From Candidatus Zixiibacteriota bacterium (GTDB lineage Bacteria; Zixibacteria; MSB-5A5; UBA10806; 4484-95), in contig JBBIRK010000006.1 of assembly GCA_037441845.1 (NCBI GenBank), positions 148,880 through 212,879 of the forward strand: a stretch of 64,000 nucleotides of DNA, given 5' to 3'. The notes beneath the pieces are model-generated. The model saw nothing but the letters and a program-made list of their open reading frames with translations. It was not told where the DNA came from and made no database searches. Both the position numbers and the translations under genes were made by a program. Below, in pieces: positions 16,530 through 36,263 of the stretch. Within the stretch, counting starts at the first letter, position 1; each line of letters starts with the position of its first letter.

Positions 16530-17687
16530 TCAAGCCATCGCCTCTTCCTTATACGACAGAGCTATTTTGTAGAAGATAGTAACCAAGAAGAAGCCGATCG
16601 CATAGACGCCCAACGATATCAGCAATTCCGGAATAGTGGGGGAATATTCCGTCACATGTCCGATAGGCGAGGGCACGAATCCGGCTACCACCATCCCCAG
16701 CCCTTTGTCGATCCAAATGGAGCCGAAAACCATCAAACACGCCGCAATCAGCAGCCCGTTCACACGCCGCAATTTCGGCACTATCAATATCACCAGCGAC
16801 AGCACCGCCAGAAACACCGAGGTCCACATCCATGGCACCAACCGCGATTTCCCCTCGAGGCCGAAATACAGATACCGGAAATGCTCCAGATGTTCCGGAA
16901 TATTGCTGTAAAACGCGGTGAAAATCTCCATTAGGATAAAGAATACATTGATACACATGGCATAAGTTACAATCTGCGTCAGCTTGCCTATCGCCTCCTG
17001 CCCGGCGTCGAATTTGGTTAGCTTACGGATAATAAAACACATCAGTATCAACAGGGCCGGCCCCGAGGCAAAAGCGGAGGCGAGAAAACGCGGGGCCAAT
17101 ATCGCGGTCAACCAAAACGGTCGAGCGGCCAAGCCCGAATACAGGAAAGCGGTAACCGTATGGATACTTATCGCCCACGGAATGGACAAAATTATTATCG
17201 GTTTTATCCAGCCCGGAGGGGCGATCGCCTTGCGCTCGGCGTTTAATGTCACTCTGCTGATTATCACGTTCAATAATAGGTAGCCGCCCAGGGCTATCGA
17301 ATCCCAGAACATCAACGAATGGGGCGTCGGATACAACATGACGTTGGGAACGCGGGTCGGCTGTCCCATATCGACGAAAATGAACAACATGCACATCATC
17401 ACCGCGGCGATAGCCAAAAATTCGCCCAGAATAGTTATTTTCCCGAACGCCTTGTAATTATGCAGATAATAGGGCAATACCACCATCACCGCCGAGGCGG
17501 CCACACCGACCAAGAAAGTGAATTGCGCGATATAAAATCCCCAGGTGACGTCGCGGCTCAATCCGGTGATACCCAGGCCGTAGGCAAGCTGTTTCAAATA
17601 AAACAAGAAGCCGATGAAAATCACAATTCCCAGCAACGTTATCCACAGCCAATATCTTCGATCTCCGATTAGCGCTCTTTCCAGCAT
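16530..17687 (-). CDS. dsrP: DsrP, NrfD/PsrC-family integral membrane quinone-interacting subunit of the DsrMKJOP complex.
   Basis: 385-aa polytopic membrane protein (about 10 TM helices). It is the last gene of the dsrMKJOP array. Confidence 0.8.
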   Translation of the reverse strand: MLERALIGDRRYWLWITLLGIVIFIGFLFYLKQLAYGLGITGLSRDVTWGFYIAQFTFLVGVAASAVMVVLPYYLHNYKAFGKITILGEFLAIAAVMMCMLFIFVDMGQPTRVPNVMLYPTPHSLMFWDSIALGGYLLLNVIISRVTLNAERKAIAPPGWIKPIIILSIPWAISIHTVTAFLYSGLAARPFWLTAILAPRFLASAFASGPALLILMCFIIRKLTKFDAGQEAIGKLTQIVTYAMCINVFFILMEIFTAFYSNIPEHLEHFRYLYFGLEGKSRLVPWMWTSVFLAVLSLVILIVPKLRRVNGLLIAACLMVFGSIWIDKGLGMVVAGFVPSPIGHVTEYSPTIPELLISLGVYAIGFFLVTIFYKIALSYKEEAMA

Positions 17688-17694
17688 ATTTACC

Positions 17695-18477
17695 TCAAAC
17701 TATGTAATAGATTTGCGGTTTGGTGCCGAGTCCGGCCTTGCGGCGGATAGTGAAATTTTCGCTGAGGATCCGCCTTACCTCCGAATCCGGATTTTCCAGG
17801 TCGCCGAAATGCAGCGCCTTATGTTTGCAGGCTTCGACACAGGCGGGAAGCAATCCCTTGGCCAGCCGCTCCTCGCAGAAAGTGCACTTTTCGACCACGC
17901 CGCGGCTGCGCGTCGGAAATTCCGGGCGCAGTTCTTTTATGAAAGGACGGGGATCGCGCCAGTTGAAACTGCGCGAACCGTAAGGACAGGCGGCCACGCA
18001 ATAGCGGCAGCCGATACACCTGTGCCAATCCATCATGACGATTCCGTCTTTGCGGCGCCAGGTAGCCTTCGTCGGGCAGACTCCCACGCAGGGGGGATTG
18101 TCGCAATGGTTGCAAAGCACCAATACCGGCTTTTCGAGCACCTCATGAACCAAATGCTCATGTTCTAAATCCGGAAACGCCCCCTCGAATTTTTCTTTCC
18201 ATATCCATTTGATTTCGTCTTTCGGATTATCGAACCGGGGCACATTATGGGTCAGATGACAGGCCTCGATACAATCGCGGCAATTATCAACCTCACGGCA
18301 TTTCCGAAAATCGACCACCATAGCCCAGCGGGCGGCGGTCAGCGGACCGCTGGTTTGCGGCGGATTGACGATCAGCGAATCCTCGCCGGCTATAGCCCGC
18401 AAAGGGAAATTGATTGCGCAGCCGAACGCCGCCGCTGAACCGGCCAAACGCAAAAATTCCCGCCTATTTACTGACAT
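17695..18477 (-). CDS. dsrO: DsrO, periplasmic ferredoxin-like 4Fe-4S protein with a Tat signal.
   Basis: The twin-arginine signal is MSVNRREFLRLAGSAAAFGCA. There are multiple Cys clusters (CRDCIEACH, CNHCDNPPCVGVCP, CIGCRYCVAACPYG, CTFCEERLAKGLLPACVEAC). Confidence 0.85.
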   Translation of the reverse strand: MSVNRREFLRLAGSAAAFGCAINFPLRAIAGEDSLIVNPPQTSGPLTAARWAMVVDFRKCREVDNCRDCIEACHLTHNVPRFDNPKDEIKWIWKEKFEGAFPDLEHEHLVHEVLEKPVLVLCNHCDNPPCVGVCPTKATWRRKDGIVMMDWHRCIGCRYCVAACPYGSRSFNWRDPRPFIKELRPEFPTRSRGVVEKCTFCEERLAKGLLPACVEACKHKALHFGDLENPDSEVRRILSENFTIRRKAGLGTKPQIYYIV

Positions 18478-18862
18478 TGCGCACCTCCTGCGGTTCCAGA
18501 TGGCAGTCCCAGCAATAAGGGCTGACGCCCACGAAGGTATGGCATTTGTCGCAAAAATCGGATTTGTTGGAATGGCAGTTCATACAAGTATTGGTCAGGC
18601 TCATTTCGATCTCTTTTCCCGTAAATGTCGTGTAAGTCCTGATTCCCCGACGAACTACCGAGTCGCGCCACTGATTGAGGAAATCCATGTGTGCGGCAGT
18701 CATATAATCTGTCGGAGCCACACATTGTTTTTCCGCTGTCACCAATTTCGGTTCCGGACGATAATCCGCTTGGCCGCTTATTAGAGCGTTATACCAGAAC
18801 GGCACCGTGATTATCGCCAGAAATATGATCAGTCCCGTCAAAATTTTACCAGCATCGTACAT
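18464..18862 (-). CDS. dsrJ: DsrJ, small trihaem cytochrome c.
   Basis: There are three CXXCH motifs (CMNCH, CDKCH, CWDCH), an N-terminal signal anchor, and the conserved extra Cys (EKQCVAP). The protein is 132 aa. Confidence 0.85.
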   Translation of the reverse strand: MYDAGKILTGLIIFLAIITVPFWYNALISGQADYRPEPKLVTAEKQCVAPTDYMTAAHMDFLNQWRDSVVRRGIRTYTTFTGKEIEMSLTNTCMNCHSNKSDFCDKCHTFVGVSPYCWDCHLEPQEVRNVSK

Positions 18863-18864
18863 AA

Positions 18865-20475
18865 TTACCGTTCCTCCCCCGGTGAAAACGGAGTTCCCCG
18901 CAGATCGACCTCCCGCTTTTTTTCGCCTTTCATTACCAACGCATTGCCGACCAGCTCATGCACGCCGGCAACCTCGACACCCGGCACCCAATATTCGAGC
19001 AGCGGCGGTAGCGTTGCTTTATCGATAGCGCAAATACAAGCCAGCAGATTGACGCCGTGCTTTTCACTGACGAACTTCACAGCGTTGGCTCGCGGCAAGC
19101 CTCCCCGAAGCCGCATTTCGAGATTTTCGTCGGTGCCCAATCCCGATCCGGAACCGCAGCAGAAAGTTTGCTCTCTGATAGTGTTTTCCGGCATCTCGTG
19201 GAAACGATTGCAGACGTTTTTCAATATATACCGCGGTTCCTCGAGCAACCCCATCGCCCTTGAGGGATTGCACGAATCGTGAAATGTCACGTTCCAATGG
19301 TCGTTGCGGCTCGGATCAAGTTTCAACTTTCCGTGCTTAATCAGGTCGGCGGTGAATTCGCAAATATGCACCATCTTGGTCGATTTGGCGTTTTCGAATC
19401 TGGTTCCCGTAATCGGCGAAACCGGCGGCTCGAGAAAATCGGCCGGACCGTTTATGGTGTCCATATATTGGTGAAGCACCCGCCACATATGCCCGCATTC
19501 GCCTCCGATTATCCATTTCACTTTCAGGCGGCGCGCTTCGGCGTAGATTTTGTTGTTCAGCCTTTTCATCATCTCGGCTGAATGGAACAGGCCGAAATTG
19601 CCCCCTTCGGAGGCATAAGCGCTGAAAGTATAGCTCAATCCGATTTCGTGGAACAGCGCCAGATAACCCAAGAGCGTGTAATAATGAGGCGTGCCGAAAT
19701 AATCCGCCGACGGCACCACGAATAAGATGTCTTTACCTTTCTCGTTGATCGGAGCGTTCACTCGTATTCCGGTCAATTCCTCAAGTTCGTCGACCGCGAA
19801 TTCGATACTGTCTTTGAATCCGTGGGGTTGAATTCCGAGATGATTGCCGGTGCGGAAACAATTGGCCGCCGGAGTGGTAATCCAGTCGATCCCGCAGCCG
19901 ATCAGATTCAACAGCTCGCGCACCATCATCGTAATTTCCGCCGTGTCTATTCCATAAGGGCAAAAAACCGAGCAGCGGCGGCACTCGGTGCATTGATAGA
20001 AATAATAGAACCACTCCTTCACGACTTGCTCGGTCAATTCTCTGGCGCCGGCCATCCTGCCCATTATCTTGCCCGCCAAAGTGAAATCGTTGCGATAAAC
20101 CGAACGGAGCAGCTCGGCGCGCAAGACCGGCATGTTTTTGGGATCGCCCGAACCGATGAAAAAATGACACTTGTCGGCGCAAGCTCCGCAGCGCACGCAT
20201 ATATCCATAAAAATTTTCAACGAACGGTATCGGTTCAGACGTTCTCGCAGCCCGTTCAAAATGATTTCTTTCCAATTTTCCGGCAACTTCCAGTCGGCGT
20301 CGGTCGGTTGCCATTTGCGGACATGGGGCAAGCCGAGATATTCAGCGCGCTCGGGAACCGCCGCATAATTGTATGTTCCGTGGCGGAATTCGACCGCCGG
20401 ATCCATCCAGCTTTTTTTCGGAGGATTATAATCTATGCGCCCGAGCTCTTCGGGTTTAGGTGTCTTTTCAGCCAT
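18865..20475 (-). CDS. dsrK: DsrK, HdrD-like catalytic subunit (4Fe-4S plus CCG domains).
   Basis: Motifs: CVRCGACADKCH, CTECRRCSVFCPYG, HDSCNPSRAMG, TFCCGSGSGLG. The start was moved to the ATG at 20475 (MAEKTPKPEELG). That ATG overlaps the dsrM TGA stop as ATGA. Confidence 0.85.
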   Translation of the reverse strand: MAEKTPKPEELGRIDYNPPKKSWMDPAVEFRHGTYNYAAVPERAEYLGLPHVRKWQPTDADWKLPENWKEIILNGLRERLNRYRSLKIFMDICVRCGACADKCHFFIGSGDPKNMPVLRAELLRSVYRNDFTLAGKIMGRMAGARELTEQVVKEWFYYFYQCTECRRCSVFCPYGIDTAEITMMVRELLNLIGCGIDWITTPAANCFRTGNHLGIQPHGFKDSIEFAVDELEELTGIRVNAPINEKGKDILFVVPSADYFGTPHYYTLLGYLALFHEIGLSYTFSAYASEGGNFGLFHSAEMMKRLNNKIYAEARRLKVKWIIGGECGHMWRVLHQYMDTINGPADFLEPPVSPITGTRFENAKSTKMVHICEFTADLIKHGKLKLDPSRNDHWNVTFHDSCNPSRAMGLLEEPRYILKNVCNRFHEMPENTIREQTFCCGSGSGLGTDENLEMRLRGGLPRANAVKFVSEKHGVNLLACICAIDKATLPPLLEYWVPGVEVAGVHELVGNALVMKGEKKREVDLRGTPFSPGEER

Positions 20476-21470
20476 CACTTGTCCTTTTCCATAGGCAATC
20501 CAGAGGCCTTGATCTTGTCGGCGAATTCTTCTTCCCACTCCTCGTAAGTGTGCACTTTAACCGGATAATCCCACGGATTGATATGCCGCCGGCTTCGGCT
20601 GTCATTGGGCATATTGCGCGTAGGGGATAAGAATACTCCGCCCATATGCATCAGTTTGCCATAAGGGAAATACGCCACCAATACACAAACCAAAAACAGG
20701 TGCAAGTAAAATAAAACTCCCAACCCGTCCGGCACGACCGGATTGAAACTGACAAGCCCCATCGCCAACTCTTTGACCGCCACGATATCGGTCTTGAAAA
20801 AATACCTCATCAACACTCCGGTCACCGCGATCGATCCGATCAGAAGCAAGGGAAAATAATCCGCGAAAAGGGAAAAATACCGCAGTTGAGCCGAAAACAA
20901 CCGCCGCAAAAACAAAAAAGTCAATGCCGCCAGCAGCGTGATATTAGTGATATATATAATCGGCACCCCGATCTGGAAAAAGCCGTCGATACTTTGCAAC
21001 AGTTTGACGAATCCCGGCACGGGCTCGGCGAAATAACGGTAATGACGCAGAAAGACGATTAAAAACGACCAATGAAAAACGAGTCCGCCCAACCATAACC
21101 ACTTGTTGGCGCTGTAGGTCAATTTCGGTCCCGTCCTCAATTCGGCTTTGGTGTTCCGAAACAGCGAACGGAACAGCAGCACTTCGAGCGCCATGCGGAC
21201 TATTACTCCCAACTTGGAACTCGGGTTGTCGATTTTATTCGATTTTATCCAGGGAAGGGAGGTCTGCTGGCCGCAAGTGGTTGTGATTTTGAACGGCACC
21301 GGCGATTTAGACCAGCCGATCACCCGATAGACCACACCGGCAAAAAACGCCGCAATCGCCGCATAAGGGATTACCACCCCGAACAGTGATTGCAATCGCA
21401 GCATTCCCGACCCGATCAAAGCAATCGCTATCAAACCACCGGCCGCCAGAAAAGATACGAAGGCATTCAT
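20475..21470 (-). CDS. dsrM: DsrM, NarI-family dihaem cytochrome b membrane subunit.
   Basis: 331 aa, 5-6 TM helices, C-terminal YFPYGKLMHMGGVF, and a position upstream of dsrK. Confidence 0.8.
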   Translation of the reverse strand: MNAFVSFLAAGGLIAIALIGSGMLRLQSLFGVVIPYAAIAAFFAGVVYRVIGWSKSPVPFKITTTCGQQTSLPWIKSNKIDNPSSKLGVIVRMALEVLLFRSLFRNTKAELRTGPKLTYSANKWLWLGGLVFHWSFLIVFLRHYRYFAEPVPGFVKLLQSIDGFFQIGVPIIYITNITLLAALTFLFLRRLFSAQLRYFSLFADYFPLLLIGSIAVTGVLMRYFFKTDIVAVKELAMGLVSFNPVVPDGLGVLFYLHLFLVCVLVAYFPYGKLMHMGGVFLSPTRNMPNDSRSRRHINPWDYPVKVHTYEEWEEEFADKIKASGLPMEKDK

Positions 21471-21518
21471 GGTCCGACGACCTTTCTTCTGGGGCGATTT
21501 GGAATTTCAGCCATACGC

Positions 21519-22037
21519 TTATACCTCGTCTTGAATATCGTTGCTTTCGAGAAGACACGCTCTATCGAGCAGTTTCTGATATCTGCGCTTGAATTCGTTT
21601 ATTTTAATCCGACCCAGCTGTTCCCGGCATTCCATGTAAATATCGAAACAATTCAGCGCGATTTCGTCGATCTTTTCGGATATGCGGGCATATTCCTTCC
21701 GGGTTTCGTGATCCTCCAGATCGACCGCAAGTTCCTCGCTTATTATTTTTTTCAATTGAAATATGAAACCGAGCGCCCGCGATGGATCGAAATCCTGCAC
21801 CGCCCTGATCTTGATCAGCTCGATCGGCAATTTCCCGTCGTGATCGCCGCTGTCCAACAACCGGTCGTAAATGCAGGCCAAGTTTTCTTTCATGGTGTGA
21901 CCGACCGGATTCAGAAATCGATCGCGTTGATTTTTAAGGTGCGCCCTGGCGCGCGGCTCATAAGTGGCCACGACACTGTCGGTCCATTTGTCGAGAATCC
22001 CTTCTCGGCGTTGCCGCAGCAGATTCAAAAGCGACAT
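21519..22037 (-). CDS. dsrT: DsrT-like protein (RsbRD-N-like domain protein commonly encoded between dsrC and dsrMKJOP).
   Basis: 172-aa soluble helical protein with no cofactor motifs. The call rests mainly on its position between dsrC and dsrM and on general similarity to DsrT/RsbRD_N proteins. It was not verified by alignment. Confidence 0.4.
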   Translation of the reverse strand: MSLLNLLRQRREGILDKWTDSVVATYEPRARAHLKNQRDRFLNPVGHTMKENLACIYDRLLDSGDHDGKLPIELIKIRAVQDFDPSRALGFIFQLKKIISEELAVDLEDHETRKEYARISEKIDEIALNCFDIYMECREQLGRIKINEFKRRYQKLLDRACLLESNDIQDEV

Positions 22038-22081
22038 CGCTCAAACACCGCCCTTTCGGCCCGATATCGACCTGTTAAAAT

Positions 22082-22119: not shown

Positions 22120-22138
22120 GCGAAATTACAAGCAGCGA

Positions 22139-22456
22139 TTAAACGCAGCCGGTCGGTTTCGCCAATCCGGCGACCTTGCAGGCTCCCTTGGCCGGTCCCG
22201 AGGGAAACAGCTCGTAGATCTCTTTCAGCGAAAATCCGGTTTCCTTGCAGAGCTTGCGGATCATCGGCGCGATACCGAATTTCTGATAATAATCGCGCAG
22301 ATAGTTGACTACCTTCCAGTGCTTTTCCGTCATTTCGGTTACGCCCTCGGCACCGGCGAGCGCTCTGGCTACATCCTCATTCCATTTATCCATTTCCTGG
22401 ATAAACCCGTCCTCATCAACCTCGATTCTCACGTTTCCTGCTTCGAAAATCGGCAT
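22139..22456 (-). CDS. dsrC: DsrC, with the conserved C-terminal swinging arm carrying both cysteines.
   Basis: 105 aa ending ...FPSGPAKGACKVAGLAKPTGCV. This is the GAC(K)...PTGCV DsrC signature. Confidence 0.9.
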   Translation of the reverse strand: MPIFEAGNVRIEVDEDGFIQEMDKWNEDVARALAGAEGVTEMTEKHWKVVNYLRDYYQKFGIAPMIRKLCKETGFSLKEIYELFPSGPAKGACKVAGLAKPTGCV

Positions 22457-22497
22457 TTCATTCCTCCATTCTTTTTATTTTTTATCTTGATTGTTGG

Positions 22498-24180
22498 CTA
22501 ATGCATCTCGATATATCCACAGGGACAATTCTCCGCGCATTTCTTGCAGCCGTTGCAAAACTCGAGTTTGAATTTATACTCCTGCCCCCGCACTAAAGGC
22601 TTAACGATCGCGTTGTCCTGGCATAGACTCCAGCAGGTTCCGCAATCGAAACAAAGGCCGCAGCTCATGCAACGCTTCGATTCTGCCACCGCCTCCTCGA
22701 ACGTCAACGTGCTGGTGATCTCGGCGTCGAGGCTTTTCAGCCTTTCTTCAACCGGAAGCTGTTTCGCTTTGACCGGGTGCGCCTCGGGGAAATAAGTATG
22801 AGCCATCTTGTCCAACGTTATCAAATCCAGCTTTTCCGGCACGCGGATCGGGTTATTCGAAATCAATTCGTCGATCGCCAGCGCCGCCATCCGCCCGTGA
22901 TAAATCGCGGTGATCACCAACCCCAGTTCGATATCGTCTCCGCCGGAATAAGTCCCAGCGTCCCTGGTCTGACCCTTTTCGTCAACCTTGATCCAATCTT
23001 TTCCATCTATCAATTTGTCCAACCCGGTGAAATCCGGCTCCTGGCTTATCGCCGCTATAAGAGTGGAAAATTTCAAGTCGAACGTGTCACCTTCGATTGG
23101 AACCGGCCGCCTTCTTCCCGATGAGTCAGGTTCACCCAATTGCATCCTCTGACATTTGGCGCCGACCGCTTTGCCGTTTTCCTGATAAATTTCTATCGGA
23201 GCCGCAAGATATTCGATAGCCACGCCCTCTTCCTCGGCGCCATCGATTTCCTCGCAGATCGCCGGCATCTCCGCTCTGGTGCGGCGGTATAAAATCGTGG
23301 CTTTGGCGCCCAATCTGCGGGCTACACGAGCGGCATCTATAGCGGTGTCACCGCCGCCGATCACCACCACATGATCTCCGACATCGAGCTTTTCGCCGGT
23401 GTTTATCCGGTGAAGAAACGCCGTTCCCGTAAAAACGTTGGGGGCATCTTCACCCTTAATCCGAAGTTTAATCCCTTGATGCGCTCCGATCCCCACGAAA
23501 ATCGCCTTGTAATCTTGTTTCAGCTTATCGTAGGCGATATCTTTGCCGACGATGGTGTTCGTTTTGAGTTCCACTCCCAGGTCGACTATCCGCTGTATTT
23601 CGGCGTCGAGAACATGCTGCGGCAGGCGATAGTCCGGTATCCCGTAGCGAAGCATACCGCCCGTCTTCGGAAACGCCTCGAATACCGTAACCGGATAACC
23701 GCGGCGGGCAAGCTGGTAAGCGCAAGACATACCGGCGGGGCCGGAACCGATTACCGCTATTTTCTCGGCCTTTTTCGTTTCGCTGATCAGTCTGGGCTTG
23801 AGGTTTTTGGATAATCCATAGTCGCCTATAAATCTCTCGATATTATTGATCCCGACCGCGCCTTCTTTATCCTTGCGATTACACTGGCTTTCGCATGGGT
23901 GTGGGCAAACCCGGCCGCATACCGAAGGGAACGGGGTCGTTTCGAGAAATATGTAGAACGCTTTCGCCAGGGTTTCATCGTAACTCTGACCGAAATCCTC
24001 GGTTCTCGAAATCGCCGTGATCATCTCCCGAATTCTGTTGTGATTCGGACAGGTATTTATGCATGGCGGCATCTTTTCCACCAGCTTGGGGCGCAATGGG
24101 GAGGTCTCTACGCTCGAGCCCCCCGACGATCGCGAAAGACTTCGCAAACCGGTTTTGGTTTTTTTGACTATTTTAGCCAT
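22498..24180 (-). CDS. dsrL: DsrL-like NAD(P)H:acceptor oxidoreductase. It is GltD-like with an extra C-terminal 2x[4Fe-4S] ferredoxin domain, probably the short DsrL-2 type.
   Basis: GltD-like N-terminal Cys cluster (CINTCPNH...CGRVCPHPCESQC). FAD site VIGSGPAGMSCAYQLARRG. NAD(P) site VVVIGGGDTAIDAARVARRLG. C-terminal ferredoxin CMSCGLCFDCGTCWSLCQ...CNGCKKCAENCPCG, which GltD, NfnB and SudA lack. It sits between dsrN and dsrC. Confidence 0.65.
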   Translation of the reverse strand: MAKIVKKTKTGLRSLSRSSGGSSVETSPLRPKLVEKMPPCINTCPNHNRIREMITAISRTEDFGQSYDETLAKAFYIFLETTPFPSVCGRVCPHPCESQCNRKDKEGAVGINNIERFIGDYGLSKNLKPRLISETKKAEKIAVIGSGPAGMSCAYQLARRGYPVTVFEAFPKTGGMLRYGIPDYRLPQHVLDAEIQRIVDLGVELKTNTIVGKDIAYDKLKQDYKAIFVGIGAHQGIKLRIKGEDAPNVFTGTAFLHRINTGEKLDVGDHVVVIGGGDTAIDAARVARRLGAKATILYRRTRAEMPAICEEIDGAEEEGVAIEYLAAPIEIYQENGKAVGAKCQRMQLGEPDSSGRRRPVPIEGDTFDLKFSTLIAAISQEPDFTGLDKLIDGKDWIKVDEKGQTRDAGTYSGGDDIELGLVITAIYHGRMAALAIDELISNNPIRVPEKLDLITLDKMAHTYFPEAHPVKAKQLPVEERLKSLDAEITSTLTFEEAVAESKRCMSCGLCFDCGTCWSLCQDNAIVKPLVRGQEYKFKLEFCNGCKKCAENCPCGYIEMH

Positions 24181-24195
24181 GATCGACTCTCTTTA

Positions 24196-25647
24196 TTATA
24201 ATGCTTTTTTTAACGCAGGTTTATTTTCACTGTTCAGGCGGTTCGCAGCAGCTGCCTTCTGCTTATATTCAATCGCCTTTTGCACGAATGCGGGCGCCCA
24301 CGATTTGACACCTTCGGCATGGATATGCAGATAACTTGCCATCGAGTTTTTGAAGACGATGCCGTCGCGTTTTCCCCCCAAGCCGGTTCCGATCTTCAGC
24401 CCCAGGCAGGTTGTATACTCATTATTCGAAAAATCCAGCGGATATGTATAATGAAATTCATGTCCCTTGATTATAGTGCCCCGCTCGTAATAAGGATTAT
24501 CTTTATCTACGACAGCCACCTCATAGCCGTGGCCGGCCGGTTTATCGCCGATACCGAGTCTTAAATTCAAAATCGAGGCCATCGGGTAACTCGCATGGTC
24601 CAATTCCAAGCTTTTTGATAGATAAATAAGGCCGCCGCATTCGGCGTAGATCGGCATGCCGCTTTCCGCCGCCTGTCGCACCGATTCCATCATGCTTTTA
24701 TTCGAGGCCAACCGCGCGGCGTGCGTTTCGGGGAATCCTCCCCCGATATAGAGGCCGTCCAGCTCCGGCAGACGGGGCTCGTCCAAAGGCGAAACCGCAA
24801 TGAGTTCGGCTCCAAAACGCCTTAAAGCCTCCAGATTTTCAGGATAATAAAAGGTGAAAGAAGAATCCGCGAAATAACCGATTCTTGCTTTTTTCGGAAT
24901 ATCTTCCGGAATTTCCGCGAAAACGTTGTGTTTGATCTCCATCGCCGGCGCCTGCGCAGCCACCTTGATCAATTCATCGATCTCTATGAATTCGCCGCCG
25001 ATTTGCATTGTTTTTTCTTCCAGTTTTTCCATCTTCCCGAATTCGTCCGGAGGTATCAGCCCGAGGTGCCGCTGAGGAATCAAATGATCGTGTTCGGTAA
25101 ATGACGGGATCGCTCCCAGAACGGGGATTCCGCAATACTTGGCTATCGATTCCTGGATTACCTTACGGTGTCTGGCGCCGGCCACTTTATTGAGGATAAC
25201 CCCTTTAATCTGCAGTTTTTTGTCGAAATCGAGACACCCTTTCAGCAGTGCGGCGATGGTTCTCGTGGTTTTGGCGGCATTGATCACCAGAACCACCGGC
25301 GACTGAATCAGTTTGGCCAGCTCGGCCGTGCTGTTTACCCCCGATTCATCTCTGCCGTCGAAAATTCCCCGGTTGCCCTCGACAACCGCGATATCGCAAT
25401 CGCTTGATCTCGAAACGAACGATCTCCATACCAATTCGGGTTCTGCCATGAAGGTGTCGAGGTTGTAGCAGCTTCGCCCGGCGATTTTACCCAGCCAGGC
25501 TGAATCGATATAATCCGGCCCCTTTTTGAATACCGCCGTCCTCAGGCCGCGGCGACGCAGAGCCGCCACGGCGCTGAGACAAACTATCGTCTTGCCGGAA
25601 TCGCCGGACAAACCGGCGATCACCAGCCGGGGCAATTCAAACCGCAT
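24196..25647 (-). CDS. dsrN: DsrN, cobyrinic acid a,c-diamide synthase homologue (sirohaem amidase).
   Basis: The CbiA/CobB N-terminal ATPase motif is VIAGLSGDSGKTIVCLSA. The C-terminal glutamine amidotransferase domain has an active-site Cys (YAECGGLIYL). It lies directly downstream of dsrABD. Confidence 0.8.
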   Translation of the reverse strand: MRFELPRLVIAGLSGDSGKTIVCLSAVAALRRRGLRTAVFKKGPDYIDSAWLGKIAGRSCYNLDTFMAEPELVWRSFVSRSSDCDIAVVEGNRGIFDGRDESGVNSTAELAKLIQSPVVLVINAAKTTRTIAALLKGCLDFDKKLQIKGVILNKVAGARHRKVIQESIAKYCGIPVLGAIPSFTEHDHLIPQRHLGLIPPDEFGKMEKLEEKTMQIGGEFIEIDELIKVAAQAPAMEIKHNVFAEIPEDIPKKARIGYFADSSFTFYYPENLEALRRFGAELIAVSPLDEPRLPELDGLYIGGGFPETHAARLASNKSMMESVRQAAESGMPIYAECGGLIYLSKSLELDHASYPMASILNLRLGIGDKPAGHGYEVAVVDKDNPYYERGTIIKGHEFHYTYPLDFSNNEYTTCLGLKIGTGLGGKRDGIVFKNSMASYLHIHAEGVKSWAPAFVQKAIEYKQKAAAANRLNSENKPALKKAL

Positions 25648-25675: not shown

Positions 25676-25921
25676 TTAATCGTTGGCCGCGCCTTCTTTA
25701 TGCGGCAATTCGATAAAACTGCCGCCGAAATAAGTGTAAACGCAGCGGCCGGAATTCATCAGCTCTTTAATGGCTTCTTTGCAGAGCTGTTTGTCGACCT
25801 CGTCGCCGTAGAGCTCGATCATGGCCTTGGTCAGATCGGTCGCTTTCAGCTTCTTTTGACCGGTCGATTCCTTGACCAATTTGTACATCGCATCGGCGAT
25901 TTCACTTACGGTTTTAGCCAC
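25676..25921 (-). CDS. dsrD: DsrD, small winged-helix protein of reductive dsr operons.
   Basis: 81 aa, Lys-rich. Its C-terminal ...SGRCVYTYFGGSFIELPHKEG resembles the DsrD ...EYWSSGSTTMYGLKG end. It is positioned immediately after dsrB. Confidence 0.7.
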   Translation of the reverse strand: MAKTVSEIADAMYKLVKESTGQKKLKATDLTKAMIELYGDEVDKQLCKEAIKELMNSGRCVYTYFGGSFIELPHKEGAAND

Positions 25922-27053: not shown

Positions 27054-28259
27054 TTACTTCTCTTCTTCGCTCTCGTCCTCTTCGAAATACTCCTCATAGA
27101 ACACATAGGGGTTTTCGCGTGGATGAGCGACCATTTCGGGGATCGGTTCCACCCCTATGGCCTCGAGGAAATTCCCCATACCGACGCGTTGGATGAATTC
27201 CCCGACACGCTCCCGGTTTTTCCCTTCCTCACTCCAGATCTCCCAGATTTTGGCCAGAAGTTCCTTGATCTCGGTGTAGGGCGGCTCGATCTTTATAAAG
27301 GGGACTATCACCGATGACAACAGCGCGCCTTCGATAATGGGTGCCTTGGAACCGAGCAACAGCGCCGCGCCTCTGTCTTTTCCCGGCCGAAGCGCTTTGG
27401 GCATGACATTTATGCAGTGCATGCAGCGGCGGCAGTAGCTGTTATCGATATGGAGCTCCTTGCCGTCCCAATCCATGCACTTGGCGGGGCAATTATCGAC
27501 CACTTCCGAGCGGATATCCATTCCTTTGGCGGCATATTCTTTAACCGCTTCCTTATCGACCTGAATGCTGTCGCGCCAAATCCCGATCACCGACAAATCG
27601 GCTCGGGCGATCGATGCCACGCAATCGTTCGGACAACCCGACATTTTAAGTTTGAACTTATAGGGAAACGCCGGCCGGTGAAGCTCATCCTGAAAAGCCA
27701 TCGTTAGGTCGTAAGTCAACGCCAGCGTGTCGTAACAAGCCCATTCGCAGCGGGCGGGACCGACACAGCAACTCGGCGTCCTTACATCTGACCCGGAGCC
27801 GCCCAAATCGAATCCGGCCTGAGTCAATTCGGAAAATATCGGTTCCAACTCGGCCGTCTGGGTGCCCAGGAAAATAATATCGCCGGTGGAGCCGTGCATG
27901 TTGGTCAATCCCGAGCCGTGTTTTTCCCATATATTGCAAAGCGTGCGCAGCGCCTCGGAGGTGTAAAACCAACCCGACGGCTGATTTATACGGATCGTAT
28001 GGAAATGTGAGATGTGGGGGAACTTATCCGGCAGATCGGAATAGCGGCCTATGACTCCGCCGCCGTATCCCATCACGCCCACGATCCCTCCGTGTTTCCA
28101 GTGCCCGATTCGCTCGTTGTATGATTGCTCGAGCTGGCCGAGAAGATCGGTCGCCATCGGGCTTTTCTGGGAGGCAAGCTTGATTTCCTTGACGAAACTC
28201 GGCCATCGGCCTTTCTCGAGTTCGTCAAGCTTGGGTGTCTTGTAATGATTATCGGCCAT
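27054..28259 (-). CDS. dsrA: Dissimilatory sulfite reductase alpha subunit.
   Basis: [21 protein letters not shown]-terminal signature. [17 protein letters not shown] sirohaem-[4Fe-4S] coupling Cys. Ferredoxin domain [10 protein letters not shown]...[12 protein letters not shown]. Acidic C-terminal tail. Confidence 0.9.
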
Positions 28260-28411
28260 CGTTTCTCCTTACACCATTATGGTTGATTCTTTATTATCTT
28301 CCGATTTCTTCGAACAGCGCCCGGCAGCGGCCATGTTCGCCTCCTCGGGCATAAATTGCAGATTTCATCCTGTCCGCTCCGCTCTCCGACCGGCCAACCG
28401 CCTTCCAATCA

Positions 28412-28440
28412 TAGATAGTTAACCCGACGCCGCCAGTCAA
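28412..28440 (-). promoter_or_regulatory. Sigma-70-like promoter candidate upstream of dsrA. On the - strand: TTGACT, 17 nt, TATCTA.
   Basis: The + strand AGTCAA lies at 28435-28440 and TAGATA at 28412-17. The site is roughly 155 nt upstream of the dsrA ATG. A second candidate (TTGATT, 16 nt, TATAAT) lies at 28536-28563 on the - strand. Confidence 0.25.
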
Positions 28441-28621
28441 GAACTATTTGTGAAATTTTTCATTATCTTATTTCGGCTGCGACCCCTTTTCTCATTCATA
28501 AGATTCGCTATTTTTGGCTTCAACGTTTCAGCCAGATTATAGCATCTAAACATGGACAATCAAACTTATTTTTATCCCGATACGACCGCCGATCACCATT
28601 TGCGTTGACTTTCCATCGTAA

Positions 28622-30859
28622 CTACATGCCTTTATATGGATTAGGCCCGATCTTGTCAATCTCCTCGAGAAATCCGTCGAAAATCTCCGGGATTTTCCGA
28701 TAGTCGCTTATAGCCAACTCATGCAGCCTGACCCGTTCCTCCTCCAGCACCAACTGCTTCAATTTCTCCCGTACGTTCGACATCCGCGTTGCCGCCAGCT
28801 CGCTTCCCCTGATAAAGTGGCATTGGTAATCATCGCCCTTTTTGCAACCGATAAGCAGCACGCCGTCGAATCCGCTGGCCAAAGCATCGCTGACCCAGAC
28901 GGTATTCATCGAACCCAGGCATCGCAAAGGGATTAATCGAATCATCGCATTGTAACGCAATCGCATCAATCCGGCCATATCCACCGATGGCAAAGCGTCG
29001 TTTTCGCAGATAAAAGCCAAAATCCGCGGTTTTTCCTCGAACTCGTCGGGAATGTGGATCGATTTGATCATCTGCGACATCATGTTCACGTTGTAGTTCT
29101 TGAACGAGATTATCCGCTCGGGACAGGCGCCCATGCAGACGCCGCAGCGCCGGCAACGGAATGGATTGGGAAGCGGTGTTCCTTTTTCGTCCTCGTCGAG
29201 AGTCCCAAAAGGGCACTCCTCAGTGCACCGCTTGCACTGGGTGCATCGCTGCATGAAAAATTCCGGAAAACTTGCATCTCCCGACCGCGGATGCACGGCC
29301 AGCCCCCGGGATACCGCCTCGACCGCCTGAATCGCTTTCAACGCCGCCCCGTAGGCATCATCGCGGCTCTCGGCGAATCCCATCGGGGCCCGCACCGCCC
29401 CGCAGGCGTAGATCGCCGTCCGCCTGGTTTCATAGGGAAAACAGATATAATGGGAATCGGGAAAGCCGTATTTGAGGGTGGGGAGATCTGTTCCTTGACG
29501 GTAAGTCAAATTGATTATTTTCGCCCCCTTCTCGGCGCCTGCCGCTTCCTTTTTGCCATCGGCGGTGGTGGCTGTTTGATCGCCTGCGGTATCGCCGACG
29601 GATTCCTCCTCGAGCGTCTCGACTTTCGTGGCTGGAACCATCCCCGTGGCCAGGACTACCAAATCCGCCTTGATAGAAATGCTTTCCCCCAAGAGCGTGT
29701 CAGTCGCTGTAACCAGTATTTTCCCCGAATTATCTTTGGCGACTTCCTTGATTTCGCCTTTGGTGAAAAATACGGCGTCATCGTCCTGAACCTGCGCATA
29801 AAACAGCTCTTGCTGGGCAGGAGTCCGCATATCCTTGTAAATAATATAGATTTTTGTGTCGGGATAGCTTCGCCTTATATACAGGGCCTGTTTCAAGGTG
29901 ACCAAACAACAAACCGACGAACAATAGGGGAGATGGTTCTCGTCGCGTGAGCCGGCGCACTGAATGAAAACCACGCTTTCAGGTTTCTTGCCGTCCGATG
30001 GCCGTTTTATTCCCCCGTTGCCCATCATCCGCTCGATATCGACGTTGGTCACGACGTCCGGGGAAATTCCGTAACCCAGATGCGTCAGTTTGCCGGGGTC
30101 GTAGGCGCGCCAGCCGGCCGCCAAAATTATCGCTCCGACCTCGATCTGTTTGCCGCCGGATTCGTTTTTCAAAGTAACGGCGAATTTGCCGGGCTGCCCG
30201 CTGGTTTTTTCGACGACGGTTGACGTGTAAACTTGAATGTTTTTGTTTGAATTCACCTTTTGCAGAAGGTCTTGCAGCCCGGTATCATCGAGGTTCGAAT
30301 AAGGGGAAATACGAGGGTATGATTTCGTAGTTTTCGCCGCCCAGCCGCCGAGCTCTTTTTCTTTTTCGATCAGCACCGCCTGATAACCGGCCTCGGCCAC
30401 GGCCAGAGCCGCCTGTAAACCGCTCATTCCGCCGCCGATCACCATGATCGATTTGCTGGTCGGTTCGATATACGGCTCGGGCGGTTCCGAATTCTGCAGC
30501 CTGGCTATTCCCATTCTGATATAATCCTCGGCCAGCATCTGCGTATCTTCGTCGTTGGGTGCATGAGACCAGGCTACCTGTTCGCGCAAACTGATTCTAT
30601 CGGTTAAGACATCCTTACCGAAATCAAACAGTTCCGTAAATACGCGGCCCGAACAGGCGGCGATCGCCACCCGGTTGAGATTCTCGGCCTTGATATCGTC
30701 CTTTATCGATTCGACCGTTTCTTTGGCGCACAGAACGGCGTGCGATTTGCAAACGGCGGCTTTTCCACCCTTGGCCGCCTCAGCGACGAGTTTTTCGATA
30801 TCGATTGCTTTTTCGATATCACAGCCACGGCAAATATAAACTCCAATTTTCGTGTCCAT
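28622..30859 (-). CDS. qmoB: QmoB, HdrA-like flavoprotein with a C-terminal MvhD-like domain.
   Basis: 745 aa. FAD site IMVIGGGMSGLQAALAVAEAG. Several 4Fe-4S Cys motifs. C-terminal MvhD-like ILAFICENDALPSV...LIGCKKGDDYQCHF. Confidence 0.8.
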   Translation of the reverse strand: MDTKIGVYICRGCDIEKAIDIEKLVAEAAKGGKAAVCKSHAVLCAKETVESIKDDIKAENLNRVAIAACSGRVFTELFDFGKDVLTDRISLREQVAWSHAPNDEDTQMLAEDYIRMGIARLQNSEPPEPYIEPTSKSIMVIGGGMSGLQAALAVAEAGYQAVLIEKEKELGGWAAKTTKSYPRISPYSNLDDTGLQDLLQKVNSNKNIQVYTSTVVEKTSGQPGKFAVTLKNESGGKQIEVGAIILAAGWRAYDPGKLTHLGYGISPDVVTNVDIERMMGNGGIKRPSDGKKPESVVFIQCAGSRDENHLPYCSSVCCLVTLKQALYIRRSYPDTKIYIIYKDMRTPAQQELFYAQVQDDDAVFFTKGEIKEVAKDNSGKILVTATDTLLGESISIKADLVVLATGMVPATKVETLEEESVGDTAGDQTATTADGKKEAAGAEKGAKIINLTYRQGTDLPTLKYGFPDSHYICFPYETRRTAIYACGAVRAPMGFAESRDDAYGAALKAIQAVEAVSRGLAVHPRSGDASFPEFFMQRCTQCKRCTEECPFGTLDEDEKGTPLPNPFRCRRCGVCMGACPERIISFKNYNVNMMSQMIKSIHIPDEFEEKPRILAFICENDALPSVDMAGLMRLRYNAMIRLIPLRCLGSMNTVWVSDALASGFDGVLLIGCKKGDDYQCHFIRGSELAATRMSNVREKLKQLVLEEERVRLHELAISDYRKIPEIFDGFLEEIDKIGPNPYKGM

Positions 30860-30860
30860 C

Positions 30861-32156
30861 TTAATTCCTCCCCGCAGTCACATTTATCGCTTTGAGCGCC
30901 GCTCCGGTGGCATCTCTTACCGAATCGGCTACGTCCGCCGGCCTCAAAGCCGTCCCGGCGCCGATTATCCCCGACTTTTGCTGGGGCACGAAAAATCCAT
31001 ACGGGTCGATTTGCAGATTAAGCGCCGGTGCATCTGCGGCGGTATTAGGAACCATGCCGACCGCCAACACGGCCATCTCGACCTCGTAATCGCAGGTACT
31101 GCCGGTTAGTGTGTCTTCTGCCGTCAGCACCAGATTTCCGTTGGCATCGTTGCGGGTGATTTTGCCCACCTTGCCGCGGTGAAAATGCAATTTCGGATCC
31201 TGTTTCGCCTTGGAGTAGAAATCCTCAAGACGTCCCGGAGATCTTATATCTATGTAAAAGATATGAATATCCGCTTCCGGATACCGGGCTCTTACGTACG
31301 ATGCCTGTTTCATCGAGGCCAAGCAGCAGACGGCCGAACAATAGGGGAGATGATTCTCATCGCGGGAACCGGCGCATTGCACGAAACCGATGCTCGAAAT
31401 CTCCTTGCCGTCCGATGGCTTTACGATTTTACCGCCGTAGGGACCGTTTTCCGAGGCAATTCTTTCCATCATCACGTTGGTGATGACATCGGGATATTTG
31501 CCGAATCCGAGATTGTCCAGCCGTTTGGCGTCATATGGCCTCCAGCCGGTCGCCCAAACTATCGCTTTGGCATTGACCGTTATCTGAATCGGCCGCATGT
31601 CGAAATCGATCGCGCCGTATTCGCATACTTCGGCGCATTTCCTCACTCGGGGATCATTGACATAATTGCCGTCGATAACATACCTGAACGGATAAGCCAT
31701 CAAGTGCGGCAGATAAATCGCCTTGGTTTGATCGAGGCCGTAATTGAAAGTGTTGGGAATGCTTACTTCGCAGGCCTCGGCGCACTTGCCGCAGGCGGTG
31801 CATTTTTCATTAATATAGCGTGGATTTATTTTGATCGACGCCTTGTACGAGCCCGGTGCACCCTCGACCGATTGAATCTCCGTCAATGTCAGGACCTTGA
31901 TGTAGTTGCTGTTTTTGATCCTTTTCAGATTGATCTCCAATCCGCAGGTGGGGGGGCACATTTTCGGAAAGTACTGATTGGTGGCGGCAACCCGACCGCC
32001 CAGCGAGGGCTGCGATTCGATCAACAGCGCGTGATGAAACGTCTCCGCCAACTCGATCGCCGCGGTGATCCCCGCAATGCCGCCCCCGACTATCAACGCG
32101 TCGGTGTTGATTGTTGAGCCTGATTTTAGTTGATTTTCATGGATAATTTGGGTCAT
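30861..32156 (-). CDS. qmoA: QmoA, HdrA-like FAD/FeS flavoprotein.
   Basis: 431 aa. FAD site ALIVGGGIAGITAAIELAE. Ferredoxin Cys motif CTACGKCAEAC. It lies directly upstream of qmoB, 1 nt apart. Confidence 0.8.
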   Translation of the reverse strand: MTQIIHENQLKSGSTINTDALIVGGGIAGITAAIELAETFHHALLIESQPSLGGRVAATNQYFPKMCPPTCGLEINLKRIKNSNYIKVLTLTEIQSVEGAPGSYKASIKINPRYINEKCTACGKCAEACEVSIPNTFNYGLDQTKAIYLPHLMAYPFRYVIDGNYVNDPRVRKCAEVCEYGAIDFDMRPIQITVNAKAIVWATGWRPYDAKRLDNLGFGKYPDVITNVMMERIASENGPYGGKIVKPSDGKEISSIGFVQCAGSRDENHLPYCSAVCCLASMKQASYVRARYPEADIHIFYIDIRSPGRLEDFYSKAKQDPKLHFHRGKVGKITRNDANGNLVLTAEDTLTGSTCDYEVEMAVLAVGMVPNTAADAPALNLQIDPYGFFVPQQKSGIIGAGTALRPADVADSVRDATGAALKAINVTAGRN

Positions 32157-32618
32157 ATAATTCTCCTTAAACCCTTATTCCCGCAACAAATGCTGGTATT
32201 CTCCAAACCCGAAGACTATACCGCAATTTGTGAAATAATTAACAATACCGGGCAAAAAAATCACCGTAAGGTTCTGCAGATTTTCCATAGCCGCTTCAAA
32301 TTAACAATCGCTAATTTCATATGTCAAGCAATAATCCGATTTTTTATCCCGATCATGGTCAACTTATATCATATTAGGAGATTCATTTTTTTTCTTGACA
32401 GGCTTTGTGAAAAAAAATACATTTCCCCCAAGAAATGAAATTTTGGGGAAATCGGCGCCGAGCTGGATTTTTTTGGTGATACATTGTGAAAAAAATAACA
32501 AGAATATTGGCCGCTCAATCTTTCTTTTCCCCGGTTTTCACGCCGATCCGCTTGCTCGATCAATCGAATTTATTCCATCGATATTAATCGAAACAACTAA
32601 AAGGTGACAGGAAGGCCT

Positions 32619-33845: not shown

Positions 33846-33876
33846 ATCGATAGCTTAAACGATACAGGAGGTTTGA

Positions 33877-34317
33877 ATGCCGAGTTATGTGATTTTCGAC
33901 AAATGTGATGGTTGCAAGGCGCTCGATAAAACGGCCTGCCAGTATATTTGTCCGAATGACTTGATGGTGCTTAACAAAGAAAAAATGAAAGCCTACAATC
34001 AAGAGCCGGAAATGTGCTGGGAGTGCTATAGCTGCGTGAAGATCTGCCCCGTCCAGGCGATCGAAATCCGCGGCTATGCCGATTTCGTGCCGTTGGGTGC
34101 CAGTGTCACCCCCATGAGAAGCAGCGATTCGATCATGTGGACCGTCAAGTTCCGCAACGGAATGCTGAAAAGATTCAAATTCCCGATTCGCACTACTCCG
34201 GAGGGTCAGGCCAAACCGGACGGCGGCTTTGCCACCGCTCACGACGATCTGAACAGCCAAGTCCTGGCCCAAGAGCCCGAGGCGCTGAGAACCAACGAAG
34301 TTTACACCATTAAGTAA
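33877..34317 (+). CDS. aprB: Adenylylsulfate (APS) reductase beta subunit.
   Basis: MPSYVIFDKCDGCKALDKTACQYICPNDLM...CWECYSCVKICPVQAI gives two 4Fe-4S clusters, followed by the AprB C-terminal tail. The RBS is CAGGAGG. Confidence 0.9.
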   Translation: MPSYVIFDKCDGCKALDKTACQYICPNDLMVLNKEKMKAYNQEPEMCWECYSCVKICPVQAIEIRGYADFVPLGASVTPMRSSDSIMWTVKFRNGMLKRFKFPIRTTPEGQAKPDGGFATAHDDLNSQVLAQEPEALRTNEVYTIK

Positions 34318-34337
34318 TAAGTCGGAGGAAGCTGAAT

Positions 34338-36263
34338 ATGTCTCAAAAATTTGAAACCGTAAAAGTAACGACAGATCTGCTTATTCTTGGTGGTGGCATG
34401 GCGGCATGCGGCGCTGCGGTCGAGGCCTCATACTGGGCCAAGAAAAAGGGCTTGAAAGTAACGCTTGTCGACAAGGCGGCCATGGATCGTTCCGGCGCAG
34501 TCGCCATGGGCTTGTCGGCGCTCAATCAATATGTCGGCCTCCACGAGGGCAAAAATACGGTCAAGGATTACGTGGATTACGTGCGTATGGACTTGATGGG
34601 CGTAGTCAGGGAAGACCTCGTCGCCAATATCGCCCGCCACGTCGATTCGACCGTCCACCTCTTCGAAAAATGGGGTCTGCCGATCTGGAAAGACGAAAAA
34701 GGCGGCTATGTCCATGAAGGACGTTGGCAGTTGATGATCAACGGCGAATCCTACAAGGTCGTTATCGCCGAGGCGGCCAAAAACGCGCTTGCCCAAGCCG
34801 GCGGCCAGTATTTCGAACGCATCTTCATCACCGAACCGCTGTTGGATGGCGATCGCATTGCCGGCGCCATCGGTTTCAGTGTCCGCGAAAACAAATTCTA
34901 CGTGTTCAATGCCAAGGCGACAATAGTGGCCATGGGCGGCGCCGTGCATGTGTTCAAACCACGCAGCACCGGCGAGGGTCTCGGGCGCGCCTGGTATCCA
35001 CCCTGGAATTCGGGTTCGAGCGCTTACTTCACCATCAAAGCCGGCGCCGAAATGACCAGCCAGGAAGTCCGCTTCATCCCCGTTCGTTTCAAAGACGCAT
35101 ACGGACCGGTCGGTGCCTGGTTCCTGCTCTTCAAGTCGAGAGCGACCAATGCAATGGGCGGCGACTATATGGTCGAGCGGGTTGACGAATTGCAAAGATG
35201 GAAACCTTACGGCCTGGTGAAACCTATCCCGGCCAACCTGCGCAATTGGCTCGGCATGATGGATACCATGGAAGGCAAAGGCCCGATCTACATGCGCACC
35301 GAAGAAGCGATCAACAAGATAGCCAAGGCTGCCGGCGATGAAAAAGAAGCCAAGAAAAAACTCAAAGAGCTGGAAGCCGAAGCTTGGGAAGACTTCCTCG
35401 ACATGACCATTTCGCAGGCGATCCTCTGGGCTTCAACCAATGTCGAGCCCGAGGTGAAGTCATCCGAAATCGCCGCCGCCGAACCGTATTTCATCGGTTC
35501 CCATTCCGGCGCATCCGGCGCCTGGGTCAGCGGTCCCGAGGATCTCCAGACTCCCGAAACCAAGAAGGAATACTTCTGGGGCTACAGCCACATGTCCACC
35601 GTCAAGGGTATGTTCTGCGCCGGCGATGCTTCGGGTGCCTCGTCGCATAAATTTTCCTCCGGTTCGCATGCCGAGGGCAGAATCGTGGGCAAAGCGGCAA
35701 TCAAGTTCATCGTCGAAAACAACACCCTGCCCAAAATCAACGACGCTGAGGTCGAAGCATTGAAGGCCGCGGTTTACAAGCCGCTGGAGAATTTCGAAAA
35801 ATTCAAAGGCGCCACCACCGATCCCGATATCAACCCCAATTACATCCGGCCGAAGATGTTCATGTTCCGCCTGCAAAAAATAATGGATGAATATGTTGGC
35901 GGCGTCTCGGCTCAGTTCTCCACCAATAAGGCTTGCCTCGATCGGGCGCTCGAATTGATCGGCTATCTCAAGGAAGACAGCGAAAAACTGGCGGCCAAAG
36001 ACCTTCACGAACTCATGCGTTGCTGGGAAAACGTCCAGAGGATGTGGCAGGCGGAAGCTCACGCTCGCACCATTCAGTTCCGCGAGGAAACAAGATGGCC
36101 GGGCTATTACCGCCGCGCCGATTTCCCCACCATGGACGAGAAAAACTGGCATTGCTTCGCCAACTGCCGCTGGGACCGCAACAAAAAGAGCTGGGAAATG
36201 ATCAAACGGCCGATGCTTCATATCTATCCCCAGCCACAAGAACACGAGTTGCTTGGCGGTTAG
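34338..36263 (+). CDS. aprA: Adenylylsulfate (APS) reductase alpha subunit (FAD).
   Basis: The N-terminal FAD motif is DLLILGGGMAACGAAVEAS. The 641-aa fumarate-reductase-family flavoprotein follows aprB. Confidence 0.9.
   Translation: MSQKFETVKVTTDLLILGGGMAACGAAVEASYWAKKKGLKVTLVDKAAMDRSGAVAMGLSALNQYVGLHEGKNTVKDYVDYVRMDLMGVVREDLVANIARHVDSTVHLFEKWGLPIWKDEKGGYVHEGRWQLMINGESYKVVIAEAAKNALAQAGGQYFERIFITEPLLDGDRIAGAIGFSVRENKFYVFNAKATIVAMGGAVHVFKPRSTGEGLGRAWYPPWNSGSSAYFTIKAGAEMTSQEVRFIPVRFKDAYGPVGAWFLLFKSRATNAMGGDYMVERVDELQRWKPYGLVKPIPANLRNWLGMMDTMEGKGPIYMRTEEAINKIAKAAGDEKEAKKKLKELEAEAWEDFLDMTISQAILWASTNVEPEVKSSEIAAAEPYFIGSHSGASGAWVSGPEDLQTPETKKEYFWGYSHMSTVKGMFCAGDASGASSHKFSSGSHAEGRIVGKAAIKFIVENNTLPKINDAEVEALKAAVYKPLENFEKFKGATTDPDINPNYIRPKMFMFRLQKIMDEYVGGVSAQFSTNKACLDRALELIGYLKEDSEKLAAKDLHELMRCWENVQRMWQAEAHARTIQFREETRWPGYYRRADFPTMDEKNWHCFANCRWDRNKKSWEMIKRPMLHIYPQPQEHELLGG

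Follow-up and report, generated by a model that had tools for sequence, protein, structure and literature searches.

Background

The 64-kb stretch of DNA examined here (64,000 nucleotides, positions 148,880 to 212,879 of contig JBBIRK010000006.1; called the window below) carries a locus for dissimilatory sulfate reduction, and gene clusters of the same kind have been published (Anantharaman 2018, PMC6018805; Hausmann 2018, PMC6018796; Neukirchen 2023, PMC10504309; Diao 2023, PMC10591310). The peatland Acidobacteria SbA1-7 have, like the window, sat, aprBA, qmoABC, dsrAB, dsrD, dsrN, dsrL, dsrC, dsrT, dsrMKJOP and dsrM2K2 together with syntenic genes whose function is unknown; SbA2 has all these genes on one scaffold, and in SbA1-7, as probably in the window, DsrL is found alongside a reductive-type DsrAB (PMC6018796). 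The dsr operons of Zixibacteria and candidate phyla (PMC6018805, PMC10591310) also resemble the window, with a full Dsr set, dsrD and dsrL-2, and with the whole pathway often in one region.

The window holds a complete and intact gene set for sulfate respiration, of a clustered kind known from Zixibacteria and other uncultured phyla. Our reading, to which we give a probability of roughly 0.75, is that a Zixibacteria-type bacterium here carries, on its chromosome, a sulfate-reduction supercluster that is typical of its lineage and of the known "reductive DsrAB + DsrD + DsrL-2" kind, with about eight transcription units, a shared operator and a sat block that has moved. The cluster type itself is already published; the predicted shared operator is the modestly new point.

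Gene set and layout

Genes were called from the listing of open reading frames (ORFs) with curated hidden Markov models, namely NCBIfam equivalog models with their curated cut-offs and Pfam. The gene names and gene order proposed in an earlier note on this DNA were all borne out. In the list, "equivalog" stands for an NCBIfam equivalog match above the curated cut-off.

6234-7358, plus: qmoC; NCBIfam qmoC equivalog, 432 bits (cut-off 300); five hydrophobic segments in the transmembrane scan
16530-17687, minus: DsrP; equivalog
17695-18477, minus: DsrO; equivalog
18464-18862, minus: DsrJ; equivalog; three CxxCH motifs
18865-20538, minus: DsrK; equivalog
20475-21470, minus: DsrM; equivalog
21519-22037, minus: DsrT; RsbRD_N protein
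22139-22456, minus: DsrC; TIGR03342 match
22498-24180, minus: DsrL; PRK12771 match; YRR motif
24196-25647, minus: DsrN; CobB-like
25676-25921, minus: DsrD-like, 81 aa; position directly after dsrB, size, winged-helix fold
25934-27016, minus: DsrB; equivalog
27054-28259, minus: DsrA; equivalog
28622-30859, minus: QmoB; HdrA-type models only, below their cut-offs
30861-32156, minus: QmoA; HdrA-type models only, below their cut-offs
ATG at 32619, end 33845, plus: Sat; equivalog
33877-34317, plus: AprB; equivalog
34338-36263, plus: AprA; equivalog

The plus strand carries sat-aprBA; divergent from it, the minus strand carries qmoAB and then dsrA-B-(D-like)-N-L-C-T-M-K-J-O-P. The dsrA leader, given earlier as 362 bp, has exactly that length (28260-28621, from qmoB to dsrA), and the gap between qmoA and sat is 462 bp (32157-32618) instead of the 460 bp first stated. 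These are indeed the only two large gaps. All the others within 16530-36263 are at most 101 bp, and the tight clustering described in the note is real. The same interval, which had been taken as the locus, was right in its contents and too small: qmoC, the siroheme genes, DsrM2K2, the DsrC-like protein and the DASS symporter lie outside it. The pathway-related block begins at about 0.6 kb in the window and ends at 46.8 kb, so that about 46 kb, all parts counted, are given over to the pathway. The overlooked qmoC lies about 25 kb from qmoAB and does not adjoin it.

The homology calls had been described as robust; DsrD was not recognised by sequence, and for QmoA and QmoB the NCBIfam and Pfam model scans returned no Qmo-specific match. 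We assign the latter two because of their synteny with aprBA and dsrA; they are 60-71% identical to the qmoAB preceding dsrA in Zixibacteria-type loci. For the 81-aa protein, no DsrD match was obtained by Pfam, NCBIfam, PDB phmmer (1UCR included) or profile search, and none of the 120 homologues listed, of 1921 found, has a Pfam domain. Its AlphaFold2 model is a winged helix with a predicted local distance difference test score (pLDDT) of 85. Against DsrD (1ucr_A) the model reaches template modelling (TM) scores of 0.65/0.71, at rank 21 among generic winged-helix matches in a fold search that is non-specific. A small gene after dsrB is kept in nearly all related loci. By position, size and predicted fold only, the protein fits DsrD.

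DsrC keeps both conserved C-terminal cysteines and ends ...GACKVAGLAKPTGCV. In DsrL the YRR motif is at residues 298-300, in the NAD(P)-binding domain, which is the DsrL-2 signature as defined in PMC7596348, and by this motif the protein is classed as type 2. Zixibacteria DsrAB is termed reductive-type in PMC6018805 and PMC10591310; the DsrAB of the window was compared with its neighbours only.

Downstream of dsrP lie the following genes, all on the minus strand.

14715-16448: CoADR-rhodanese (CoA-persulfide/NADH-persulfide reductase-like); both active-site Cys motifs present
13485-14684: hemA
12801-13463: sirC/cysG-N
11878-12804: hemC
10323-11885: cobA-hemD fusion
9346-10326: hemB
8038-9327: hemL
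7689-8048: MazG-like, in the same block (7689-14684)

From hemA to hemL these genes make up the full route from glutamyl-tRNA to siroheme, and relatives carry the same genes after dsrP. The CoADR-rhodanese gene probably starts near 16403, and a PDB search gave NoxA-3 (6pfz), CoA-persulfide reductase (8a56) and Npsr (3nta) as the nearest solved relatives of its product. The gene sits between dsrP and hemA, as it does in three relatives (L093, L094 and L100); this position hints at persulfide or polysulfide handling tied to Dsr.

Pathway and direction

Given what these families are known to do, the steps would be as follows. Sulfate would be taken up by the DASS symporter and activated to APS by Sat; APS would be reduced by AprBA with electrons from QmoABC, and sulfite by DsrAB with DsrC, whose trisulfide would be recycled by DsrMKJOP. 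DsrL-2, to judge from its YRR motif, may bring NADPH electrons to DsrAB, and siroheme from the adjacent hem and sirC genes would be amidated by DsrN.

It may be asked whether the pathway works chiefly backwards, as sulfur oxidation, or serves disproportionation, and not sulfate respiration. The presence of DsrL would permit this, as organisms with DsrL-2 go either way (PMC7596348, PMC6018796), and so would the CoA-persulfide-reductase-like enzyme with its rhodanese domain after dsrP. On the other hand, a gene at the DsrD position and dsrT are present, the scanned ORFs include neither dsrEFH nor aprM, the cluster is linked with a sulfate symporter gene, and derepression of the NADH type would suit an electron-sink pathway. 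We consider both alternatives unlikely and keep to sulfate respiration.

Regulatory signals

The operator consensus of Rex is TTGTGAA-W4-TTCACAA (PMC2883068), and Rex represses sat in Desulfovibrio vulgaris (PMC7531388). We scanned for the box TTGTGAA-N4-TTCACAA, called Rex-type here; the boxes and the neighbouring promoters and terminators are listed, with the strand where one applies.

6116-6133: Rex-type box, 100 nt upstream of qmoC; a box at the same position in 13 of 14 relatives
28412-28465, minus: dsrA promoter block; Rex-type box 28448-28465, -35 TTGACT 28435-28440, candidate -10 TATCTA 28412-28417
32228-32245: Rex-type box with 1 mismatch, 71 nt upstream of qmoA; orthologous box in 10 of 11 Zixibacteria-type loci
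32395-32501, plus: sat promoter region; TTGACA-17-TACATT with a half-site, Rex-type box 32484-32501; repeat family D4
38446-38463: Rex-type box upstream of the tandem DsrC-like gene
41688-41838: pair of Rex-type boxes with 3 mismatches apiece, between the divergent dsrM2 and PPDK-like-DASS genes
16446-16475, minus: strong terminator-like hairpin after dsrP, 13-bp stem
36304-36335, plus: strong intrinsic terminator after aprA, 14-bp stem and T run

The window contains eight boxes at no more than three mismatches (2.2 expected). Seven of the eight fall in the 6.4 kb of intergenic DNA, where 0.30 would be expected, and none of 2000 simulations reached seven. An alignment of the dsrA leaders of ten loci reveals a conserved block, TAATGAAnnnnTTCACAA followed by TTGACT, which matches the Rex operator consensus. 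Among the relatives compared, the boxes are confined to the Zixibacteria-type clade and stand at fixed positions: about 55-70 nt before qmoA, about 130-210 before dsrA, about 100 before qmoC and 40-170 before sat.

The locus appears to consist of about eight transcription units. As predicted, these would be sat-aprBA, with the strong terminator at its end; the zinc-finger and CxxCxxCC pair; qmoAB; dsrA to dsrP, ending at the hairpin; the CoADR-rhodanese and heme genes; qmoC; dsrM2K2 with the DsrC-like gene; and the PPDK-like, CBS and DASS genes. The operator upstream of most of them suggests a single regulon, either of the Rex type (NADH/NAD-sensing) or of the CRP/FNR type. It is tempting to go further and to propose that throughout the Zixibacteria-type clade uptake, activation, APS and sulfite reduction, and DsrM2K2 with its DsrC-like partner are placed under one Rex-like operator as one redox-sensing regulon, and that the zinc-finger and CxxCxxCC proteins are undescribed accessory parts of the APS reductase/Qmo step; this wider proposal we put forward tentatively and would not bet on. 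The conserved boxes nonetheless provide a testable hypothesis for the switching of the pathway and a sequence marker of the Zixibacteria-type clade.

The earlier note raised possible read-through from qmoAB into dsr, having seen no recognisable terminator after qmoB. None was found by the terminator scan or by folding, and no stable structure either; nor was there a riboswitch or terminator in the dsrA leader and the 3' region of qmoB, where folding z-scores are near 0. The two gene groups have the same direction, and qmoB adjoins dsrA directly upstream in 16 of 60 loci; with no terminator seen, some read-through is possible. Nevertheless, the conserved operator and -35 block stands 150-205 nt upstream of dsrA, and in relatives hairpins are seen after qmoB, with a canonical terminator in one of them (L012). 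Because the leader holds this operator and -35 box, dsrA very probably has a regulated promoter of its own, as predicted from the alignment, with read-through at most additional; that qmoAB and dsr form one long read-through operon we find doubtful.

The leader also contains a 21-codon upstream ORF (28269-28334, minus) with a strong GAGGAGG ribosome-binding site, ending 10 nt before the dsrA ATG. It is probably there by chance, since the region is poorly conserved in relatives.

Relatives and the sat/qmoA junction

By DsrA identity, the nearest named relatives are metagenome-assembled genomes (MAGs) of Zixibacteria (82%), followed at 70-80% by MAGs labelled Ignavibacteria, Elusimicrobia, Calditrichaeota, Planctomycetes, Acidobacteria, Gemmatimonadota and myxobacteria. 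A neighbour-joining tree of DsrAB groups the window with loci L082 and L083 within a Zixibacteria-dominated clade. A peptidase in the flank, unrelated to sulfur metabolism, also has its best named matches in Zixibacteria (74%).

Of 80 related loci, spread over many phyla, most have the order dsrABDN-L-C-T-MKJOP. Downstream of dsrAB, dsrL is found in 58 of 59 loci; the set dsrB, L, C, M and K is found in 42 of 52, and aprA within 10 kb in 19 of 53. In one complete Zixibacteria genome (L002, CP070766.1) dsrABDN stands apart, and qmo, dsrL and dsrMKJOP are all missing within 10 kb; thus, clustering is not universal in Zixibacteria. Two loci labelled Zixibacteria and Ignavibacteriales (L005 and L006) have nearly identical DsrAB and the same flanks; this suggests conflicting labels or bins, or else a very recent transfer.

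In close relatives the order DASS-qmoAB-dsrABDNLCTMKJOP is seen, and so is the order dsrJOP-CoADR-hemA-sirC-hemC-cobA/hemD-hemB-hemL, followed by qmoC divergent from sat-aprBA-zinc finger-CxxC. No instance of sat divergent from qmoA was seen in about 160 sampled loci. Since close relatives have the qmoC/sat junction and none has sat/qmoA, we read the junction of the window, from gene order, as a derived, lineage-specific rearrangement, a translocation that left qmoC behind: the block sat-aprBA-zinc-finger-CxxC would have moved from its place beside qmoC to a place beside qmoA. One repeat (family D4) is still found upstream of both qmoC and sat in the window. We also weighed an origin by one inversion of the sat block, starting from an ancestor with collinear sat-aprBA-qmoAB-dsr; the closest relatives have sat beside qmoC, so translocation fits better.

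Island or resident locus

The clustering had been interpreted earlier as a candidate for a horizontally transferable island, to be checked by phylogeny and composition. GC is level across the whole window, windows of the cluster correlate with the flank reference in tetranucleotide usage at 0.91-0.96 and windows of the flanks at 0.92-0.95, pooled codon usage of core against flanks gives r = 0.984 (above flank against flank), and GC at third codon positions of sat is 0.636; the cluster does not differ from its flanks. The window contains no tRNAs or Rfam matches (tRNA and Rfam scans), no integrase or transposase genes (Pfam scans) and no flanking or long repeats (repeat analysis). The lone mobility trace is an excisionase-family helix-turn-helix (HTH) domain (4581-5411). 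DsrAB falls in the Zixibacteria clade, and the flank gene has its best named matches in Zixibacteria; the window has no ribosomal markers. An unremarkable composition and a DsrAB that seems to agree with the host, of the kind that the note itself had named as arguments against an island, are what we find, as far as the window allows.

A recently acquired, horizontally transferable island might still be argued from the compactness of the pathway, from the occurrence of the same cluster type in many phyla at 70-82% DsrA identity, from the published inference of lateral dsrAB transfer (PMC6018805) and from the excisionase-family protein. The lack of compositional deviation, tRNA, integrase, transposase and flanking repeat argues against it, as do the placement of DsrAB with the host taxon, the operators, which are clade-specific and track the gene phylogeny, and the neighbouring genes, common to close relatives. 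We regard it as very improbable; the locus seems instead to have been resident in the chromosome for a long time.

Transfer as a unit is better supported at the level of the cluster type, which many phyla share at 70-82% DsrA identity a distribution that the literature traces in part to lateral transfer (PMC6018805); a deep inter-phylum transfer, as published there, is plausible. More specifically, the cluster may have passed as a unit between phyla in ancient times, into or out of Zixibacteria, and been inherited vertically since. The DsrAB tree mixes the labels Zixibacteria, Ignavibacteria, Elusimicrobia, Spirochaetes and Planctomycetes, and the gene order is common to several phyla. Mussmann and co-workers (2005) are said to have argued for concomitant transfer of clustered sulfate-respiration genes; it is also argued in PMC6018805. 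Large clades, however, match their phylum labels (Acidobacteria, Gemmatimonadota), and the mixing may partly be binning or labelling error, given the near identity of L005 and L006. We see this as a real possibility with somewhat less than an even chance. The picture of how sulfate reduction has spread is left unchanged by the locus.

Accessory genes

The remaining features lie to the right and to the left of the core.

36570-37663, plus: Ogr/Delta-like zinc-finger protein (89 aa) and CxxCxxCC protein (PF03692, 270 aa); Pfam
37712-38389, minus: tandem double DsrC-like protein; one conserved Cys kept, without the penultimate C-terminal Cys
38484-39062, minus: conserved helical protein; no family match; 145-192 aa, likely start M48 (145 aa)
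38972 to about 40591, minus: DsrK-like protein (DsrK2)
40585-41526, minus: dsrM2-like; 91-nt overlap with another ORF
42072-46825, plus: PEP-synthase-like (PPDK-like) protein, CBS protein and DASS sodium:sulfate-type symporter (45287-46825)
637-2058, minus: histidine kinase (PAS); Pfam
2086-3825, minus: HmcF/TmcB/DsrK-like CCG iron-sulfur protein fused to a receiver domain; Pfam, NCBIfam
3828-4517, minus: HmcE/TmcC-like membrane protein; transmembrane scan
4581-5411: excisionase-family HTH domain protein

The CxxCxxCC gene adjoins aprA in 19 of 21 loci. The zinc-finger and CxxCxxCC pair follows aprA in 19 of 21 loci across phyla, often placed between aprA and qmoA, and it recurs in most of the close relatives whose qmoC/sat region was compared; both genes probably belong to the "syntenic genes of unknown function" of Hausmann 2018. 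The conserved helical protein is encoded between dsrN or dsrD and dsrL in most related loci; here its gene follows the DsrK-like gene. The conserved genes of unknown function beside aprA and dsrL are candidates for missing components of the pathway. In L082 and L083 the PPDK-like/CBS/DASS module is directly upstream of qmoA. On the left, we infer that the genes at 637-4517 belong to the pathway; the trio could be a redox module controlled by phosphorylation. At 60040-62101 an RpiB-DeoC fusion stands beside an ORF with a weak match to the bacterial microcompartment (BMC) domain, and this could be a sugar-phosphate microcompartment locus.

Discussion

Several points weigh against our reading. 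Half of the eight boxes (4/8) need three mismatches, their geometry equals that of CRP/FNR sites, no rex or other regulator gene was seen within the 64-kb window, and in the window the candidate -10 of dsrA (TATCTA) is a weak one; the transcription units, like the regulator, are ones that we infer from the sequence. Sequence comparison leaves DsrD unconfirmed, sequence alone does not tell the direction in organisms with DsrL-2 (PMC7596348), and the taxon labels of the MAGs are submitter-given, some of them conflicting (L005 against L006).

Compared with the window, SbA1-7 belong to another phylum, with DsrA only 70-73% identical; their order differs (aprBA-x-x-qmoAB-dsrAB collinear, dsrL before dsrN), and their loci lack Rex-type boxes upstream of qmoA and dsrA. 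The window differs from other Zixibacteria operons in having sat-aprBA beside qmoA and qmoC 25 kb off. The Wadden Sea fosmids of Mussmann 2005, as cited in PMC6018805 and PMC6338057, reportedly carry clustered dsr and apr genes as a transferable unit. The idea of a clustered unit is the same; the window is without a transfer signature. DsrAB sequences from these fosmids are among the closest matches to the DsrAB of Ignavibacteria and Zixibacteria (PMC6338057).

The sat promoter of D. vulgaris has, like that of the window, an operator of the TTGTGAA-N4-TTCACAA type (Christensen 2015, Ravcheev 2012, via PMC7531388); the window belongs to another phylum, and in it boxes precede at least six units, among them qmoC, dsrA, qmoA and sat. 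The DsrL of the window resembles, as far as the gene goes, the DsrL-2 of Desulfurella amilsii (PMC7596348): it has the YRR motif, a ferredoxin domain at either end and, probably, a reductive-type DsrAB partner. We believe that the locus shows the DsrL-2/DsrD-type supercluster of an uncultured phylum in clean and complete form, and that its main added value is regulatory.

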